This document shows positions 1-6,891 of a DNA stretch of 7,280 nucleotides, in pieces. The translations under genes and the position numbers were made by a program. Origin of the DNA: a virus (lineage: Duplodnaviria > Heunggongvirae > Uroviricota > Caudoviricetes); the IMG/VR virus record IMGVR_UViG_2700989509_000014, one strand, 5' to 3'. The first letter of the stretch is position 1. Every line of letters starts with the position of its first letter. The notes under the pieces were generated by a model. It worked only from the letters and a program-made list of their open reading frames with translations, was not told the DNA's origin and searched no databases.

Positions 1-839
1 TTCATGGCTATGTCATGACTGACGGCAAACTCCATGCCGATGATACCCCGGTCCAGGTACTGCTGCCGGGTAATAAGAAGACGAAGACCGGGCGGTTGTG
101 GGCGTATGTTCGTGATGACCGCAATGCCGGGTCAGCGTTGGCACCTGCAGTGTGGTTCGCTTACAGCCCGGACAGGAAAGGCATCCATCCGCAGACTCAT
201 CTTGCCTGCTTCAGCGGTGTGCTGCAAGCGGATGCGTACGCCGGGTTCAACGAGCTGTATCGCAATGGTCGGATAACGGAAGCTGCCTGCTGGGCTCATG
301 CCCGCCGAAAGATCCACGATGTGCACGTCCGCATCCCGTCAGCACTGACGGAAGAAGCCCTGGAGCAGATCGGTCAGTTGTACGCCATAGAGGCGGATAT
401 AAGGGGAATGCCGGCAGAGCAGCGGCTTGCTGAACGTCAGCGAAAAACGAAACCGCTGTTGAAATCCCTGGAAAGCTGGTTGCGTGAAAAGATGAAGACC
501 CTGTCGCGACACTCAGAGTTGGCGAAGGCGTTCGCGTACGCACTTAACCAGTGGCCGGCACTGACGTACTATGCGAACGATGGCTGGGTGGAAATCGACA
601 ACAACATCGCTGAAAATGCCCTGCGGGCGGTCAGTCTGGGTCGTAAAAACTTCCTGTTCTTCGGCTCTGACCATGGTGGTGAGCGGGGAGCGCTACTGTA
701 CAGCCTGATCGGGACGTGCAAACTGAATGACGTGGATCCAGAAAGTTACCTTCGCCATGTGCTTGGCGTCATAGCAGACTGGCCGGTCAACCGGGTCAGC
801 GAACTGCTTCCGTGGCGCATAGCACTGCCAGCTGAATAA
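1..839 (+). CDS. IS66-family transposase (TnpC-type), C-terminal ~279 aa; 5' end truncated by the window edge (reading frame enters at position 3)
   Basis: Open frame from position 3 with no upstream stop inside the window; the ORF-track translation (…[11 protein letters not shown]…[10 protein letters not shown]…[10 protein letters not shown]…) is what I recognise as the conserved C-terminal region of IS66 transposases. The internal ATG at 15 is unlikely to be the true start. Confidence 0.8.
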
Positions 840-876
840 CACATCCCCGTCAATACGGCCCTCGCTGTACGCTTAC
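1..876 (+). mobile_element. Right-hand end of an IS66-family insertion sequence (partial; element continues upstream of the window). The proposed terminus at 873-876 (TTAC on the plus strand, GTAAGCG... on the minus strand) is tentative.
   Basis: The 1-839 ORF encodes the C-terminal part of an IS66-family transposase. About 25 bp past its stop, the minus strand reads GTAAGCGTACAGCGAGG (reverse complement of 860-876); IS66-family terminal inverted repeats are described as beginning 5'-GTAA. GC-rich (about 57% in a sampled 60-mer) compared with the adjacent cassette. Exact boundary is uncertain because a second copy of the end motif lies at 1040-1055. Confidence 0.6.
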
Positions 877-879
877 GGA
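864..879. repeat. 16-bp direct repeat gctgtacgcttacgga, copy 1 (IS66 end-like motif)
   Basis: Exact 16-mer, present again at 1040-1055. On the minus strand it contains GTAAGCGTACAGC. Confidence 0.7.
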
Positions 880-1039
880 GGCAGCAACGAGCTGCTGTTT
901 AAATTCGGGAGGATAATTAGGGCAGCCTTTTCGCCTGCCGGGAGTCACATTTTTCTGCATATCTGATACTTTGGTTCCCACTACTTATTTGGTGGACACC
1001 ACTTTGTCTAATTCGTCAGATTCTGACCAGACGGTTCAG

Positions 1040-1055
1040 GCTGTACGCTTACGGA
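1040..1055. repeat. 16-bp direct repeat gctgtacgcttacgga, copy 2 (possible solo IS66-type terminal repeat or remnant)
   Basis: Exact match to 864-879, 176 bp further right, in non-coding DNA between the IS and the prophage cassette. Confidence 0.6.
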
Positions 1056-1162
1056 TGAAGGTGATGGGGCAGGGATCAGAATTGCGTGGTGTAGCAAGTT
1101 GTATCTATCAATTTTCAATAAATACAATTGGTTATGTGTTTTTAGGTGGAGCGATCGTGAGG

Positions 1163-1189
1163 CAAAGAAAACCCGGCGCGGTGGCCGGG
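1163..1189 (-). terminator. Rho-independent terminator closing the minus-strand two-gene cassette
   Basis: On the minus strand: CCCGGC-caccgc-GCCGGG (6-bp GC stem, plus coordinates 1172-1189) followed directly by TTTTCTTT (plus 1164-1171). It starts about 15 nt after the stop codon of the 1205-2134 gene. There is no T-tract on the plus-strand side, so it is unidirectional. Confidence 0.65.
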
Positions 1190-1204
1190 CTGAAGGGGCT
1201 CATT

Positions 1205-2134
1205 CTAATCGATTGATTTAATATCCCATTGAGGTCGAGAAACCAGAGTGTATCTGGGCTTGCCCTTACCAACAGTTTTTTTCAGGAACGTGGCTGTTGC
1301 AACGCTTCCTAAGTGCTTGTTTATAATATCTGGGTCATCTACAGCTTTGTCAATGCTAGCGGTTCTGATATCAGTGTTACCTAAAACTATAAATTCACAT
1401 TGGCGCTTGTTAGGAAGAGTTCCCAAAAATATAACGTTCTCAATAATTTTTTCCTGCTGAATGTTATCATTGCTGAGATGTTGATATACAGCTTCAAGCT
1501 GTTTTGGCTCTCTAAAAACGATGCTAAAACCTTGGCTTTTAAGTGTAAAAACTGTTTTATTTTCATGCAGATAATGAATGAATGCTCTGATTTTATCTAA
1601 GGCCCGAGAGTCTAAGTTTTCTATAGCATCAGACAATTCTTCATCATCATTATCCAAGCTTGCCTGAAATATTTTTCTGGCCTTATTAATAGCTTTTGCT
1701 ACTGGGGTTTCTTCATCGAATTCAAGAGGAGCATCAGGTCTAAACTCTTCAAGTACGAATCCGAAAGAACCACGGGCTGACGCGGTAATCATGAGATGAT
1801 TATTTTCTATGTTTGGTATCTTGCCTGATGCAGGAAGTGGGCCATTGAAAGAGGTTGCCAAGTAAGCTATTGCATCATTAAAACAAGATATAGCTTTTGT
1901 TCCAAATACTGCTGAAATGCCATGCGTGCCAACTACTGTTGGGCCTCTAAAAGTTAACACAGCATGCGTAGGTTCATGTTCTCGAACGTCAGCTTGTGAA
2001 ATTAATCGCTCAACTTTCTCCAGACGGTCTTCTAAGCTTTTTCGGCTAATAGAATGACTTGTTGGCATATTTTTTAATAGATTACTTATTTGCTCGCGCT
2101 CACTGAGAGCGAAAACATAATCATTACGATTCAT
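1205..2134 (-). CDS. Hypothetical protein, 309 aa; distal gene of a two-gene cassette downstream of cI; candidate defence/exclusion component, function unknown
   Basis: Long ORF with ATG at 2134 preceded by GAGGGGG 7 nt upstream on the minus strand. Its start overlaps the stop of the upstream gene by 4 bp (ATGA). AT-rich (about 33% GC in a sampled 60-mer). Ends just before an intrinsic terminator. No Walker motif, no obvious transmembrane segment, no family I can name. A weak R-x6-H string (RAFIHYLH) is noted but not relied on. Confidence 0.75.
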   Translation of the reverse strand: MNRNDYVFALSEREQISNLLKNMPTSHSISRKSLEDRLEKVERLISQADVREHEPTHAVLTFRGPTVVGTHGISAVFGTKAISCFNDAIAYLATSFNGPLPASGKIPNIENNHLMITASARGSFGFVLEEFRPDAPLEFDEETPVAKAINKARKIFQASLDNDDEELSDAIENLDSRALDKIRAFIHYLHENKTVFTLKSQGFSIVFREPKQLEAVYQHLSNDNIQQEKIIENVIFLGTLPNKRQCEFIVLGNTDIRTASIDKAVDDPDIINKHLGSVATATFLKKTVGKGKPRYTLVSRPQWDIKSID

Positions 2135-2709
2135 TGTTTGACCCCCTCAGTAGTAGCCGAATTAAGTATAGTCATTGCCACAACATCAAGTTGTGGGTTT
2201 AACGGGATTTGGATAAATCCCTTCCACGACAGATCGCGTCTATGTGCCCACATACTGTACCAGTATACAGTCATTTCAACAAGCTCATGACTTGGTAGAT
2301 TAAGTTCTTGGAAGTAGGAATCTACGAAAAACTCCTTCTTAACAAAATCATGATCAAATAGCTCTGGCTTTCTACCGATTACGATTGCATCATTATCGCC
2401 ATTACTGAATTGAAAAAAGGTCACAACATCGACATCATTCGGTGGCCTTTTTTCAATAAGTTCAATATGTTCTGTGAAGCTTCCATCTACCCACTGAAAA
2501 CCTTCAACTAGCCCTGCTTGAGTGAGTGAAACACGAAAGTTAAGAAAACCCTTAAGGATTTTAATCCTTGCAGGGCTAAGCGAAAAAGTACTAACAAAGC
2601 GTACTATATCCATTTTGTATGGGGAACGAGTATGGCTTGTAGGATCAGCCTCGTCTATTGGGGGGATTAACCCCATCTCATTCCATAGAGAGACAGTTGG
2701 TATACTCAA
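2131..2709 (-). CDS. Hypothetical protein, ~192 aa (TTG start at 2709; alternative ATG at 2676 gives 181 aa); proximal gene of the cassette; possible nucleotidyltransferase-like fold, tentative
   Basis: ORF with TTG start preceded by AAGGT 5 nt upstream on the minus strand; the internal in-frame ATG at 2676 has a weaker GGAA signal. Contains W-V-D-G-S-F, then 15 residues, then D-V-D-V-V, which resembles the hG[GS]…DhDh signature of Pol-beta-type (minimal) nucleotidyltransferases; this is pattern resemblance only. AT-rich. Lies 114 bp downstream of the cI stop on the same strand. Confidence 0.7.
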   Translation of the reverse strand: MSIPTVSLWNEMGLIPPIDEADPTSHTRSPYKMDIVRFVSTFSLSPARIKILKGFLNFRVSLTQAGLVEGFQWVDGSFTEHIELIEKRPPNDVDVVTFFQFSNGDNDAIVIGRKPELFDHDFVKKEFFVDSYFQELNLPSHELVEMTVYWYSMWAHRRDLSWKGFIQIPLNPQLDVVAMTILNSATTEGVKQ

Positions 2710-2823
2710 TGCTTAACCTTTATAACGAACTGAATATTCGGCAAAATATTGTTTTTAGGTATTGGCTGCTGTGCTTGTCGGACGGTTATTTCGTGTCACC
2801 CAAACGTTTCTTCTGGCCACTGG

Positions 2824-3531
2824 TTACCAGCTATGTGATGACCAGAATACTCTGCCAATAATCCTTACTGTTTCATGAAACTCATCTCTATCCATTACTT
2901 CATCAGGGTACTCTTCGCGATTTATTGATCTGATTATCACGGATGTAGGTGTGGCTATTAATGTCTTTACTCTTAGTAAATCAGATTGACAAATAGCGTA
3001 GGTTTTACCATCTCTGATGGTGGTGTCTTGCGTGTTGACTCCAACAACATCACCATCGTGAAGGGTTGGCTCCATGCTTTGGCCTATCACCCTAACCAGC
3101 TTGGCAGAGCTTTCAGATACCCCCATCTTTTTCAGATAGTACTTTCTGAAAACCAAAGAGAACTCAGATGATTCCTCTAACTCACAGCTACCACTCCCGG
3201 CGGAAAGAGAAACATTAAGAAGAGGCAATGCGACAAACTCGTCATCGTTTCTTTTTATGTCCTCCCATACCACCGCTTTTAAAGATGACTCACGCACATT
3301 CGATGGCTCTTCATGTGCACCATCCCTCATTTCACCAATACCTGAGCTAAGCCATTCAGGGCGTACTTTTAAAGCATTGGCTAACTCAACCATCTTTCGA
3401 GATCCGTTTGTTTTACCGGATGACATCTTCTGTATGGCTGGCTGAGATATTCCAACCATGTCAGCAAGCTGTGATTGTGACACCCCTGCTGAGCTCATGG
3501 CTGCATTTAGTCTTTCTGCGAATGTTTTCAT
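2824..3531 (-). CDS. cI: Phage CI-like repressor (N-terminal HTH, C-terminal S24/LexA-type autopeptidase), 235 aa from ATG 3531
   Basis: HTH segment SQSQLADMVGISQPAIQKM. Ala-Gly candidate autocleavage site (LSAGSG). Ser nucleophile in GQSMEP and a downstream Lys (LLRVKTL), as in LexA/CI S24 peptidases. Divergent from a cro-like gene across an operator region. The ORF track starts at a TTG (3561), but that extension would overlap operator site 1; the ATG at 3529-3531 (MKTFAERLN…) is the more likely start. Confidence 0.85.
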   Translation of the reverse strand: MKTFAERLNAAMSSAGVSQSQLADMVGISQPAIQKMSSGKTNGSRKMVELANALKVRPEWLSSGIGEMRDGAHEEPSNVRESSLKAVVWEDIKRNDDEFVALPLLNVSLSAGSGSCELEESSEFSLVFRKYYLKKMGVSESSAKLVRVIGQSMEPTLHDGDVVGVNTQDTTIRDGKTYAICQSDLLRVKTLIATPTSVIIRSINREEYPDEVMDRDEFHETVRIIGRVFWSSHSW

Positions 3532-3543
3532 ACCCACAAATCT

Positions 3544-3606
3544 ATAACTACGGTTATCCAAAGTAAAATAACAAAGGTTATTGCTATTTTTTATAACTTG
3601 AGTTAT
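3544..3606. promoter_or_regulatory. Tripartite operator (OR-like): three perfect ATAAC-N4-GTTAT palindromes between the divergent cI and cro genes; overlapping pRM/pR-type promoters inferred
   Basis: Exact sites ATAACtacgGTTAT (3544-3557), ATAACaaagGTTAT (3568-3581) and ATAACttgaGTTAT (3593-3606), spaced 24 and 25 bp start to start, like lambda OR3-OR2-OR1. Candidate rightward promoter TTGCTA (3581-3586), 17-bp spacer, TATCTT (3604-3609), or alternatively a -10 TATAAG at 3614-3619. Candidate leftward -10 is TATAGA on the minus strand (plus 3541-3546). Promoter hexamers are guesses; the palindromes are exact. Confidence 0.65.
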
Positions 3607-3642
3607 CTTTGGTTATAAGTAATGTCCACAAGAGGTATGCTC

Positions 3643-3867
3643 ATGAATTTAGTAATTCAACGAGCCTTGAAAATTGTCGGTAGCCAAAAGCGCCTTGCCG
3701 ACAAGTGTGGTGTAACGCAGCCAGCAGTACATAAATGGCTGAAAGGCGGGTTGGTCTCTCCAGAGAAAGTTACCGCCATCGTTAACGCCACAGGAGGGCA
3801 GATCAAGGCTTACGAAATCCGCCCAGATTTGCCACACCTGTTTCCAAAACCGAATCAGGCAGCATAA
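3643..3867 (+). CDS. cro: Cro-like small HTH regulator (YdaS/Cro family), 74 aa from ATG 3643
   Basis: First rightward gene opposite the repressor. HTH-like segment QKRLADKCGVTQPAVHKWLKG followed by AIVNATGG, which resembles YdaS/Cro-type proteins. AGAGG at 3631-3635 sits 7 nt before ATG 3643; the upstream in-frame ATGs at 3622 and 3637 lack a properly spaced RBS. Stop TAA at 3865-3867. Confidence 0.65.
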   Translation: MNLVIQRALKIVGSQKRLADKCGVTQPAVHKWLKGGLVSPEKVTAIVNATGGQIKAYEIRPDLPHLFPKPNQAA

Positions 3868-3973: not shown

Positions 3974-4273
3974 ATGGAACAAACAAGTTACAGCAAACTA
4001 TCACAGCGCGACGTTGATCGCGCAGAAACAGATTTACTCATCAACCTGTCAACGCTTACACAGCGCGGTCTGGCAAAGATGATTGGCTGTCATGAATCGA
4101 AGATAAGCAGAACGGACTGGAGATTTATTGCTTCGGTCTTGTGTGCTTTCGGAATGGCATCAGACATCAGTCCGATTAGCAGGGCTTTTAAGTATGCGCT
4201 TGATGGACTCACCAATAAAAAACGCCCGGTGTGCAAGACCGAGCGTTCTGATCAAATACAAATGGAATTTTAA
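3974..4273 (+). CDS. cII: CII-like transcriptional activator (lambda CII homolog), 99 aa
   Basis: C-terminus LTNKKRPVCKTERSDQIQMEF closely matches the lambda CII C-terminus (…ILTNKKRPAATERSEQIQMEF); a central HTH-like segment is present; position after cro/nutR is canonical. Stop TAA at 4271-4273. Confidence 0.8.
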   Translation: MEQTSYSKLSQRDVDRAETDLLINLSTLTQRGLAKMIGCHESKISRTDWRFIASVLCAFGMASDISPISRAFKYALDGLTNKKRPVCKTERSDQIQMEF

Positions 4274-4570: not shown

Positions 4571-5518
4571 ATGAGCAATACAGCAAAAATCTACGATTTC
4601 AGCGCCGCACACGAGCGCAGGAGCAACAGGATGGAGAACCAGAAAACTGGTTACATTCCGTTGTACCGGAGCATTCTGAAACAGTCATGGGCGAAAGATG
4701 TTTATCTTCGCACCCTGTGGGAAAACCTTCTCCTGAATGCCGCCAGAAAGCCATACAAAGCGAATTTCAAAGGTCATGAATGGCATCTGCAACCCGGTCA
4801 ACTGGTTGTGACAGCAGCTGATTTAGGTCTTCAGTTATGCGACAGGCATGGCAAGCCAGCAAGCCGCGATCAGGTTGAGCGGATGCTTCAGGTTTTTGTG
4901 AAAGAGGGGGTGATCACCATTGATGGAGAGAAGCAAAAAGGTCGTGTGATTACCATCACAAATTACCATGAATATGCTCAAAAAATGGACGATTCACCCG
5001 CACATGAAGCCGCACAAACAACCGCACATGATGCCGCACATGACGAAGCCAGCAATGGCGCGGCTTTCAGAGTACATGCCGCACATGAAAGCGCACATGA
5101 AGCCGCACAAACAACCGCACATCATGAACAAGAAGGTATTAACAAGAATATAAATAATACCCCCCTACCCCCCAATGGGGGAGGCGATGGGCAGGTTAAA
5201 CCTGAACGTCGCAAGGCAGAACGAATCGACTACGAATCCTTCCTGAACGCCTACAACACCGAAGTCGGTGGCAGACTTCCACACGCTGTTGCGGTCAACG
5301 AGAAACGCAAACGCCGCCTGAAGAAAATCATCCCGCAACTGAAAACGCCAAACGTGGACGGTTTCAGAGCGTATGTCAGGGCGTTTGTACATCAGGCCAA
5401 GCCGTTTTACTTCGGAGACAACGACACGGGCTGGACGGCTGATTTTGATTACCTGCTGAGGGAAGACTCGTTAACGGGAGTTCGGGAAGGGAAGTTTGCA
5501 GACAGGGGGATTGCATGA
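4571..5518 (+). CDS. Replication initiation protein, lambda O-like N-terminus with a conserved phage replication-protein C-terminal region, 315 aa; carries the origin iterons internally
   Basis: N-terminus [11 protein letters not shown]… parallels lambda O (MTNTAKILNFG…). A His/Ala-rich linker is encoded by the iteron repeats. Directly followed by, and overlapping by 4 bp with, a DnaB-family helicase gene (P22 gene 18 / gene 12-type arrangement). Confidence 0.75.
4998..5181. repeat. Putative phage origin of replication: iteron array, AT-rich tract and C/G palindrome inside the O-like gene
   Basis: A 31-bp perfect direct repeat cgcacatgaagccgcacaaacaaccgcacat at 4999-5029 and 5092-5122. At least eight copies of the 10-mer (c/g)cgcacat(g/c)a between 4998 and 5123. 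Then an AT-rich stretch (5125-5159, …aacaagaatataaataata…), then C6-TA-C6-AAT-G5 (5160-5181). The organisation mirrors ori-lambda, which also lies inside O. Confidence 0.6.
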
Positions 5519-6891
5519 AACAGGATATCGAAGCGAGCGTTATCGGTGGCCTGCTGATTGGTGGATTAACACCAACTGCCAGTGACGTTCTGGCAACGCT
5601 GGAGCCGGAAGCGTTTTCAATTCCGCTCTACCGGAAAGCCTTCGAGGTTATCCGCAAGCAGGCGCGAAACAGAAACCTAATCGACGCGCTGATGGTTGCC
5701 GAGGCGTGCGGAGAGGAGCATTTCACGTCAATCCTGATGACCAGTAAGAACTGCCCGAGTGCCGCAAACCTGAAGGGATATGCCGGAATGGTCGCGGATA
5801 ACTATCACCGCCGCCTGGTGCTGGAAATCATGGATGAAATGCGTGAACCAATTCAGAGAGGAACCATCGATACATCGAGTCAGGCGATGGACGAGCTTGT
5901 AAAGCGTCTTTCAGCCATCAGAAAGCCCCGTGACGAGGTTAAACCTGTACGGTTAGGGGAAATCATCACTGACTACACTGACACGCTTGACAGGCGCCTG
6001 AGGAACGGAGAAGAGTCAGATACCCTGAAGACCGGAATCGAAGAACTTGATGTCATCACCGGAGGGATGAACGCGGAAGACCTGGTGATTATCGCCGCTC
6101 GTCCTGGTATGGGGAAAACCGAACTGGCGCTGAAGATTGCCGAAGGTGTGGCAAGCCGCGTTATTCCTGGTTCTGACGTCCGGCGCGGGGTATTGATTTT
6201 CTCAATGGAAATGAGCGCATTGCAGATTGCAGAGCGAAGCATTGCCAACGCCGGGAGGATGTCGGTTAGCGTGCTGCGAAATCCTGCATCGATGGATGAC
6301 GAAGGCTGGGCGCGTGTTGCTAACGGCATGAGTCAGCTTGCAGATTTGGATGTATGGGTAGTCGATGCCTCGCGGTTATCGGTCGAAGAAATACGCTCAA
6401 TCGCAGAACGGCACAAACAGGAAAATCCAAACCTGTCACTCATCATGGCGGATTATCTTGGCCTGATTGAGAAGCCGAAAGCAGACCGCAACGACCTCGC
6501 AATTGCTCACATCTCCGGAAGCCTGAAGGCGATGGCGAAAGACCTGAAAACGCCTGTTATCTCCCTGAGTCAGCTTTCGCGCGATGTTGAGAAGCGACCA
6601 AACAAACGCCCGACAAACGCAGATTTGCGTGATTCAGGAAGCATTGAGCAGGACGCAGACTCAATCATCATGCTCTATCGGGAAGCGGTATATGACGAGA
6701 ACAGTAGCGCCGCACCATTTGCTGAAATCATTGTGACAAAAAACCGTTTTGGCTCGCTTGGTACGGTTTACCAGCGGTTCTGCAACGGACACTTTGTTGC
6801 ATGTGACCAGGATGAAGCCAGAAAGATTTGCACAGCATCAAATGCACCCGCTGCACGTGGCAGACGATATGCACAAGGGGCTGACGTATGA
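5515..6891 (+). CDS. Replicative DNA helicase, DnaB family (phage-encoded), 458 aa
   Basis: Walker A in [11 protein letters not shown], Walker B-like [10 protein letters not shown], and DnaB C-terminal motifs ([40 protein letters not shown]). DnaB-like N-terminal domain (…[11 protein letters not shown]…). ATG 5515 overlaps the O-like stop (ATGA). Confidence 0.9.

Follow-up and report, generated by a model that had tools for sequence, protein, structure and literature searches.

The window analyzed here, a stretch of 7,280 nucleotides of viral DNA (Caudoviricetes; IMG/VR record IMGVR_UViG_2700989509_000014), covers the immunity genes and the early replication genes of a lambdoid prophage. Directly downstream of its CI-type repressor gene, on the same minus strand, lie two genes, here called A and B, which are closed by an intrinsic terminator equivalent to Timm of phage lambda (Table 1). 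An earlier note, made from the sequence alone, had described them as an AT-rich cassette of 192- and 309-residue proteins and as a candidate anti-phage defense or superinfection-exclusion system. The coordinates, the homologues and the dN/dS ratios reported below bear out both genes. Their unusual composition is also evident, with a GC content of 0.34-0.42 over the 1.7-kb cassette as opposed to 0.52-0.59 in the insertion sequence (IS) DNA on its left and 0.49-0.55 in the replication genes on its right. Coordinates are window positions unless another locus is named, and GC content, open reading frames, ribosome-binding sites, terminators and promoters were read from the sequence.

Gene B starts at an ATG with a GAGGGGG ribosome-binding site 7 nt upstream, and gene A at a TTG with AAAGG before it. 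Residues 3-11 of A (IPxWNxxG) are kept in distant homologues, and we therefore favor this long form over one starting at the alternative ATG at 2676. The stop codon of A and the start codon of B share an ATGA, exactly where the earlier note had placed a 4-bp overlap, and this arrangement implies translational coupling of the two genes. Thirteen nucleotides past the stop codon of B stands a hairpin with an 8-bp stem, six pairs of which are G-C; UUUUCUUU comes after the stem and reaches about position 1160. The terminator has a folding energy of −17.4 kcal/mol (z = −2.1 relative to shuffled sequences), shares about 91% identity with the annotated Timm of phage mEp332, and is essentially the feature previously assigned to 1163-1189. 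The stop codon of cI occupies 2824-2826, and the 114 nt that separate it from A contain no terminator detectable by our scan and are less structured than shuffled controls (z = +1.24). A promoter within this spacer was considered and dropped, as a poor TATAAA has no acceptable −35 element and the scan returned none. Since the spacer is unstructured and without a terminator, read-through from cI is the simplest reading, and by analogy with lambda A and B are most likely co-transcribed with cI from the repressor promoters in lysogeny, ending at Timm. The position and polarity of rexA-rexB, which the earlier note had recognized here, are thus those of A and B, placed between the cI stop codon and a Timm-like terminator with no terminator between cI and A.

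Table 1. Features of the A-B cassette and of the immunity and replication region around it (window positions).
Feature	Position	Strand	Description or basis
Gene A	2131..2709	(−)	192 aa; DUF6932 protein, minimal pol-beta-type nucleotidyltransferase-like; invariant G76-S77, D92-x-D94, D130
Gene B	1205..2134	(−)	309 aa; partner of A; predicted helical hairpin, beta region, helical bundle and OB-like barrel; soluble
ATGA overlap (A stop/B start)	2131..2134	(−)	direct sequence reading
Intrinsic terminator (lambda Timm equivalent)	1160..1191	(−)	stem 1170-1191, U-tract 1160-1169; terminator scan and RNA fold
cI-A spacer	2710..2823	(−)	homology junctions, fold test, promoter/terminator scan
CI-type repressor	2824..3531	(−)	HTH_3 + Peptidase_S24; Pfam S24 3e-17, HTH_3 7e-07; RefSeq 235-aa form WP_000846394.1
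Tripartite operator OR3-OR2-OR1	3543..3607	not assigned	repeat finder and pattern search
cro-like gene, divergent	3622..3867	(+)	open reading frame
cII	3974-4273	rightward	
O-type replication protein	4571-5518	rightward	
DnaB-type helicase	5515-6891	rightward	

Both genes are under purifying selection, as unsaturated comparisons with homologues gave dN/dS values of 0.08-0.18 for A and 0.05-0.10 for B. They are also inherited together. When IMG/VR was searched with a profile of B, A was found directly upstream and on the same strand in 37 of 37 confirmed loci; conversely, a profile of A led to 80 loci that were kept, and B was present in all 80. A came first, and on the same strand, in each of the 133 pair loci; in all 75 unique pairs (75 different A sequences) the two genes overlap or abut, the gap being about −20 to +5 nt. 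Across loci, the identity of A to its window counterpart rises and falls with that of B (Spearman rho 0.94), with B diverging faster at long range (20-34% identity where A retains 30-47%). We conclude that A-B is an obligate, co-inherited unit.

The unit is widely distributed. In an exhaustive search of 1.84 billion representatives of 50% identity clusters, HMMER detected 1,479 relatives of B at E ≤ 1e-3; among the 150 matches listed nearly all are about 300 residues long and none is a fusion. The pair is kept, with B matching the B-family profile, in Proteus mirabilis (locus L010; 43% identity to the profile, hhalign E = 3e-59), in Burkholderia contaminans (L014; E = 3e-52) and on the chromosome of Bremerella volcania, a member of the Planctomycetota (L013; E = 6e-53). 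It is also present in a Pseudomonas aeruginosa megaplasmid (L055), in Caulobacter segnis (L141) and in Devosia ginsengisoli (L142). All sources label the relatives of B "hypothetical". The C. segnis pair (CP027850, 4387-5951) is an isolated insertion between a DoxX gene and hisS/hisZ/hisG, with no phage or mobile-element genes within 5 kb, and represents a minimal natural context. In five loci (L010-L012, L042 and L046) an extra gene coding for 111-113 residues lies between the S24 repressor gene and A-B (at 5614-5949 in L010, for example). In L010-L012, which are P. mirabilis prophages, its product matches Pfam DUF3024; this gene may be a third component or an independent moron.

We then counted the repressor linkage of the pair over the 68 unique pairs with enough flanking sequence, scoring a repressor-like gene upstream, on the same strand and within 1.5 kb. 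Such a gene, with an HTH or S24 domain, was present in 50 of them (about 74%). The genes directly upstream form at least 11 clusters below 60% identity, and Pfam identified every cluster representative as an HTH_3 protein, with or without Peptidase_S24; the hosts of the repressor-linked pairs span the Alpha-, Beta- and Gammaproteobacteria. The pair thus recurs behind at least 11 repressors unrelated in sequence, the pattern by which the earlier note had suggested its reading could be checked. The prophages that carry it also differ in their replication (O/P, O/DnaB or HTH_36/Toprim) and recombination (Bet/Exo, Rad52/SSB or ERF) modules.

The same exchangeability is seen among close relatives. 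Cassette DNA 98-99.5% identical to that of the window occurs in 8 of 5,426 complete Escherichia coli genomes, including that of the meningitis strain CE10, and a second variant with 67% nucleotide identity and the same cI-A-B layout occurs in 26 others, which makes the pair, with 34 carriers among the 5,426 genomes, a rare accessory element. The shared cassette DNA runs from just past Timm (about 1160 in L006, about 1073 in CE10-type loci) to 2822. In the CE10-type loci (CE10 and seven other complete genomes) it adjoins a different cI, coding for 237 residues, whereas the cI-cro-cII-O-P block of the window, rightward from 2822, is about 97% identical in other E. coli prophages that have different cargo in the slot. 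The mosaic junctions are therefore at the cI stop (2822/2823) and just beyond Timm. The cI-A spacer travels with the cassette and not with cI, since homology to CE10-type cassettes extends up to 2822 and homology to same-cI prophages begins there. Two prophages with the cI of the window, those of E. coli 09-00049 (L053) and ETEC1730 (L054), carry at positions 4666-4962 of these loci a gene for a 98-residue hypothetical protein (WP_000394871 or WP_000394869) in place of A-B, a further uncharacterised cargo of this slot. The view of the cI-downstream locus as a site for cargo is in agreement with this exchange, and the region between cI and N is a recognized hotspot that holds rexAB in lambda and bstA in the Salmonella phage BTP1 (PMC8585504). 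The argument from context made in the earlier note holds quantitatively. We conclude that A-B is an autonomous module that strongly favors the cI-N slot.

This behavior bears on the possibility that the pair is a phage-intrinsic accessory, which would modulate the lysis-lysogeny switch or the induction of its own phage, or change the physiology of the host by lysogenic conversion. The probable co-transcription of A-B with cI speaks for such a role, as does an association with the immunity region that is kept across Alpha-, Beta- and Gammaproteobacterial prophages; also, lambda RexA has been reported to influence the lysis-lysogeny switch. However, the occurrence of the pair with so many unrelated repressors and with different replication and recombination modules speaks against a specific regulatory partnership, and 18 of the 68 unique pairs are not in a repressor context, among them the Caulobacter DoxX-hisS insertion and the pairs on the Bremerella chromosome and the Pseudomonas plasmid. 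We regard a phage-intrinsic role as quite unlikely.

The sequence of A points to an enzyme. A matched Pfam DUF6932 (PF22014) over residues 9-168 with 93.6 bits (gathering cutoff 27; E = 2e-26), the 33 aligned A homologues all match the same family, and A also matches phrog_9194. W73, G76-S77-F78, E80, E83, R88, P90, D92-x-D94, K124, D130, Y149-W150, H156 and W162-K163-G164 are invariant, and for G76-S77, D92-x-D94 and D130 this holds in 29-33 sequences, down to 30% identity. In the AlphaFold2 model of A (pLDDT 90.8), a strand (70-75) is followed by a GS turn, a helix (82-86), a strand that carries the DxD (93-99) and a further strand that carries D130 (129-135). This succession of a strand, a GS turn, a helix, a DxD strand and a later strand with a carboxylate is the core of the pol-beta nucleotidyltransferases. 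A also shows the pattern of the minimal nucleotidyltransferases, with an hG[GS] loop, a DxD/E 10-15 residues on and a third carboxylate on a later strand. Its structural neighbors include MNT (8xeh) and HI0073 (1no5), although the resemblance to minimal pol-beta nucleotidyltransferases is weak.

Profile searches gave less. No nucleotidyltransferase family was returned by a Pfam scan of 33 A-family members at E up to 5, a single-sequence search of the PDB with A gave no match, and hhalign of the A profile with KNTase and HI0073 sequences, a weak test, gave probabilities of at most 1%. Among the profile comparisons tried, the only positive link to nucleotidyltransferases is a published HHblits result, in which 18% of the protein is matched to the SMODS cyclase of CBASS with 77.7% probability (DefensePredictor supplementary table, PMC13092281). 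Designer pentatricopeptide repeat proteins, found in a PDB profile search (E = 4e-6), were rejected as a repeat artefact that stems from nine weak DVVT(Y/F)-like copies, none of them significant alone. In our judgment A likely has the nucleotidyltransferase fold and, because every catalytic position is invariant, it is plausible that it is catalytically competent. A small-molecule nucleotidyltransferase that gives the lysogen resistance to an antibiotic or toxin, with B as an accessory binding protein, seems extremely unlikely, as A matched no NCBIfam model at E up to 1, resistance-gene models included, and the known ANT enzymes act alone whereas the partner of A is obligate.

B was less easily placed. 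It matched only phrog_18731, a family with no assigned function, and no Pfam domain was found in any member of the B family scanned. The model of B (pLDDT 84.5) consists of an N-terminal helical hairpin, a conserved beta region that carries F62-x-G64...G72, a helical bundle and, at the C-terminus, a barrel of about 70 residues that is, as modeled, OB-like. In the beta region a hairpin, A-R-G122-S123-F124-G125-F126-x-L-E129-E130, is near-invariant (the GSFGFxLEE motif). B is mildly acidic, and the maximum 19-residue Kyte-Doolittle hydropathy of both A and B is 1.1-1.2, indicating that neither has a transmembrane segment. Searches of the PDB with B gave only noise, whether with the single sequence (E ≥ 1.7) or with a profile. 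Foldseek comparison of the model with BFVD returned three full-length matches (A0A8S5QA00, A0A8S5T657 and Q6NE06; E about 1e-10), with TM-scores of only 0.37-0.42. These are viral proteins of 270-381 residues, one of them annotated as "DUF6575 domain-containing protein". Vassallo et al. 2022 newly implicated DUF6575 in defense, among other domains. Neither Pfam DUF6575 nor any PD-* model of PADLOC was matched in the B family. Two other assignments were dropped, that of a HEPN protein because B has no R-x4-6-H motif and no HEPN match, and that of an ADP-ribosyltransferase or RES-like enzyme, considered in view of the invariant R37, S123 and E129, because the spacing of these residues is incompatible. 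The absence of the usual hallmarks of defense, already remarked upon in the earlier note, was confirmed by Pfam, PADLOC and fold searches, which detected no TIR, SIR2, ATPase or nuclease domain in B.

The same note had found no family that it could name for either protein. This does not stand: A belongs to DUF6932, has nucleotidyltransferase-type motifs and matches PDC-M63A, and some relatives of B, which itself has no Pfam family, weakly match PDC-M63B. PDC-M63AB is a computational candidate system of PADLOC which, like A-B, consists of two adjacent genes on one strand (as in all 133 of our loci, with a 4-nt overlap in the window), the A component being of the DUF6932 type. A matched PDLC04744 (PDC-M63A) with E = 2.2e-10 and 38.7 bits over positions 26-150 of the 152 in the profile, and relatives of A scored 39-53 bits against PDC-M63A (E 1e-14 to 2e-10). 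In contrast, at E up to 1 B of the window did not match PDC-M63B, and at E up to 0.01 no match was obtained with four other B proteins, those of the relatives from E. coli, Proteus, Devosia and Caulobacter. PDC-M63B models were, however, matched by six of 69 diverse B-family members (best E = 2.2e-6), so that the relationship is distant and transitive. A comparison with the PADLOC profiles, which had been put forward as a check, was thus positive for A and negative for B of the window, which matched no model. Judged by these sequence comparisons, the clade of the window is a divergent sister branch of PDC-M63AB. As the B component has no model match, PADLOC would probably not call the cassette of the window. 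The example of PDC-M63AB in E. coli NILS69 is also borne by a prophage. Matches to another PADLOC candidate, PDC-M32A, were likewise obtained with six of the 69 B-family members (best E = 1e-4), which hints that a second candidate system may use a B-like component.

Independently, both proteins are found among the "predicted novel defense genes" of the machine-learning screen DefensePredictor (DeWeirdt, Mahoney and Laub, Science 2026, PMC13092281). With a cutoff of 4, WP_001081279.1, which is B, has log-odds of 6.7-7.5, and WP_000522969.1, a 181-residue form of A, has log-odds of 5.7-5.8; the two are encoded in one operon of a strain of the ECOR set and classed as uncharacterised (PMC13092281). 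WP_001081279.1 is annotated on the CE10 cassette, and the B sequence of the window is found unchanged in the same genomes. Full-text literature searches for DUF6932 and for the WP accessions of A and B found no paper, and neither RefSeq (September 2026) nor NCBIfam release 20 gives a functional name for A or B.

Phages encode nucleotide-modifying enzymes and sponges against signaling immunity, and the nucleotidyltransferase-like fold of A would also fit a counter-defense role, in which A would help the phage by modifying or depleting an immune signal or a nucleic acid of the host. However, the pair lies on the repressor strand upstream of Timm and would be expressed when the lytic genes are off. 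Moreover, tblastn of A and B against 50,697 deposited GenBank phage genomes gave no match, contexts other than phages exist, and DefensePredictor scores the pair as defense-like. A role in counter-defense is therefore very unlikely.

Comparison with known systems gave partial likenesses. Lambda RexAB, which acts in abortive infection and phage exclusion, shares with A-B the position of two genes straight after cI, on the cI strand and ending at Timm, the presumed expression from the repressor promoters in lysogens and a slot that is a mosaic hotspot. However, in Pfam, PHROGs, NCBIfam and PADLOC no Rex family was matched by A or B. RexB, small and polytopic, is a protein of the membrane, whereas A and B have no transmembrane segment, and A is nucleotidyltransferase-like whereas RexA is not. 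BstA of BTP1 is also encoded downstream of diverse prophage repressors, the promoter of which its gene is thought to share (PMC8585504), but it is a single protein of an unrelated family, with no similarity to A or B in PADLOC or PHROGs. In the type VII HEPN-MNT systems, as in A-B, the gene of a small minimal nucleotidyltransferase comes first and overlaps that of its partner, and these systems set a precedent for a nucleotidyltransferase that controls its partner by nucleotidylation; B, however, lacks the features of a HEPN protein. A differs from the CD-NTases of CBASS in that, with 192 residues, it has no CD-NTase C-terminal lobe, and it matches no CBASS or cyclase model in PADLOC. Also, B has none of the SAVED, STING, transmembrane, nuclease or patatin domains of CBASS and Hailong (HalB/HalA).

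AbiEi/AbiEii and MenA/MenT are two-gene modules as well, with a pol-beta-fold nucleotidyltransferase that is active against infection or growth, and they are a plausible functional analogue, should A be the effector. Conversely, there is no match to PADLOC AbiE or to Pfam DUF1814 (AbiEii), A is much smaller, and its partner is encoded downstream and has no winged-helix DNA-binding domain. By these comparisons A-B is not RexAB, HEPN-MNT, AbiE or MenT, CBASS or Hailong. A different reading is that of an addiction module of the toxin-antitoxin type, with one partner toxic and the other counteracting it, which would mainly stabilize the prophage or mobile element, phage exclusion being incidental or absent. 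A tightly coupled, overlapping operon whose genes are always inherited together is what such a module would look like, and the pair is also found on plasmids and as isolated chromosomal insertions. Yet no toxin-antitoxin or Abi model in PADLOC or Pfam matches A or B, there is no DNA-binding antitoxin domain, and B, at about 305 residues, exceeds the usual size of an antitoxin and shows no known toxin fold. The strong preference for a lysogenically transcribed slot behind repressors fits protection of the host at least equally well. Moreover, many toxin-antitoxin modules are themselves defense systems, so that the two explanations overlap. Addiction as the primary function seems unlikely to us.

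The region upstream of cI would supply the promoters for the cassette. Three exact ATAAC-N4-GTTAT palindromes (3543-3558, 3567-3582 and 3592-3607), spaced 24-25 bp, form an OR region between cI and cro; 0.18 copies would be expected by chance. The pRM and pR promoters, which would drive cI-A-B in the lysogen, are presumed to lie here, as in lambda and mEp332. Related loci all carry a divergent gene for 65-92 residues at the position of cro, and Pfam Cro was matched in L004-L012. The cI open reading frame, extended mechanically, reaches a TTG at 3561; as this extension overlaps the first palindrome, OR3, the true start of cI is probably the ATG at 3531, giving 235 residues as in RefSeq. This ATG is only 12 nt from OR3, which recalls the leaderless pRM transcript of lambda. 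Scans of the window with Rfam models and for tRNAs gave no match.

On the left, homology with intact lambdoid prophages ends about 100 bp past Timm, at about 1057-1073, and IS DNA (window 1-1073) occupies the expected place of OL, pL, nutL and N. It includes fragments of an IS66-type transposase gene (15-839, plus strand) and of an IS3 OrfA-like gene (850-981, minus strand). An exact 16-nt direct repeat, GCTGTACGCTTACGGA, at 864-879 and 1040-1055, contains CGCTTAC, which we take to be an IS66-type terminus; the repeat suggests nested or tandem IS ends. No ATAAC-N4-GTTAT motif is present in the window to the left of the cassette. Because IS DNA replaces OL, pL and N and the operator motif is found only at OR, the prophage is probably defective, and cI-A-B may be among the few genes still expressed. 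On the right, the O-type gene contains two clusters of 12-bp repeats, of the types CCGCACATGAAG, CCGCACAAACAA and CCGCACATGATG, at 4986-5140. They encode a His/Ala-rich protein repeat and coincide with a strong AT-skew peak; as in lambda, they are probably origin iterons embedded in the O gene.

On balance, we lean toward the view that A-B is a defense module built around nucleotidyl transfer, and the pair likely protects the lysogen against superinfecting phages, a role that we propose from computational predictions plus genomic context. Its rarity as an accessory element speaks for this role; the pair is patchy among strains and is exchanged between unrelated immunity regions. Several observations weigh against this view. 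In the only published test, deletion of PDC-M63AB from its native host, E. coli NILS69, had no effect on 10 virulent phages; the authors themselves note that their phage panel was narrow (bioRxiv 10.1101/2024.12.20.629700). The accessions of A and B are absent from Table S6 of the DefensePredictor study, which covers the 94 transcription units tested, and have no DS-number; the overall validation rate of that study was 45% (PMC13092281). B has no recognizable effector or toxin domain (nuclease, HEPN, TIR, SIR2 and ATPase were looked for with Pfam, PADLOC and fold searches) and no predicted transmembrane segment, so that its sequence suggests no route by which the cell or the phage would be harmed. 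Linkage to repressors is a preference, not a rule, as about 26% of the unique pairs lie on plasmids, in other prophage regions or in isolated chromosomal insertions. Finally, since IS DNA replaces OL, pL and N, expression from the present-day prophage would depend on pRM alone. The overall interpretation of the earlier note is thus partly supported, with an independent machine-learning screen scoring both proteins as defense genes (PMC13092281).

In our reading the cassette is a mobile "moron" operon of two genes that occupies the cI-N hotspot of its lambdoid prophage; transcription most likely reads through onto it from the repressor promoters in lysogeny, to stop at Timm. A would be a minimal pol-beta-type nucleotidyltransferase with its three catalytic carboxylates and GS loop intact, and B its translationally coupled, co-evolving and soluble partner. 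The OB-like barrel predicted for B, together with its faster divergence, suggests a role in binding a ligand or trigger. Possibly, B senses an infection cue and releases or activates A. In the manner of the MenT and AbiEii toxins, A would then nucleotidylate a target of the cell or of the phage, for example tRNA. We slightly prefer this version because sensors usually evolve faster than enzymes, and B evolves faster than A. It also seems possible that A continuously restrains B by nucleotidylating it, the invariant hairpin with S123 being a candidate site, or, in a variant of this version, that A makes a nucleotide ligand bound by the barrel of B; infection would then break the restraint, as in type VII HEPN-MNT, Hailong or Panoptes. 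The order of the two genes favors this second version, since the nucleotidyltransferase comes first and overlaps its partner, and we hold it as a nearly equal alternative to the first. Both are tentative, and taken singly each is more doubtful than the defense role itself.

A broader proposal is that a DUF6932 nucleotidyltransferase and a partner of about 305 residues and novel fold make up a mechanistically new and widespread class of prophage-borne immunity, in which the partner, through its OB-like barrel and invariant GSFGF hairpin, would sense a superinfecting phage and couple this to nucleotidyl transfer. Such a class would differ from CBASS, HEPN-MNT, AbiE/MenT and Hailong, and the B family is broad, with about 1,500 cluster representatives from Proteobacteria to Planctomycetota. 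Panels of virulent phages would miss such a system if, as may be the case, it is tuned to temperate phages. We consider this proposal possible, though less likely than not.

The idea of defense is itself not new, as two computational resources, PADLOC and DefensePredictor, had already flagged the family; what the present analysis brings is the statistics of obligate pairing and of repressor linkage, the reading of A as a nucleotidyltransferase and the placement of the pair relative to PDC-M63. D92, D94 and D130 in A, and S123, R37 and E129 in B, are the obvious candidates for functional residues, and natural lysogens that carry the cassette exist, E. coli CE10 being one. Should A-B prove to protect lysogens, the immunity genes of prophages would be joined by a compact system based on a nucleotidyltransferase and on a partner without a recognized fold, and the slot of rexAB would be used by the same cargo across three classes of Proteobacteria. 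This would also provide a function for Pfam DUF6932 and for the B family, which has no Pfam model.

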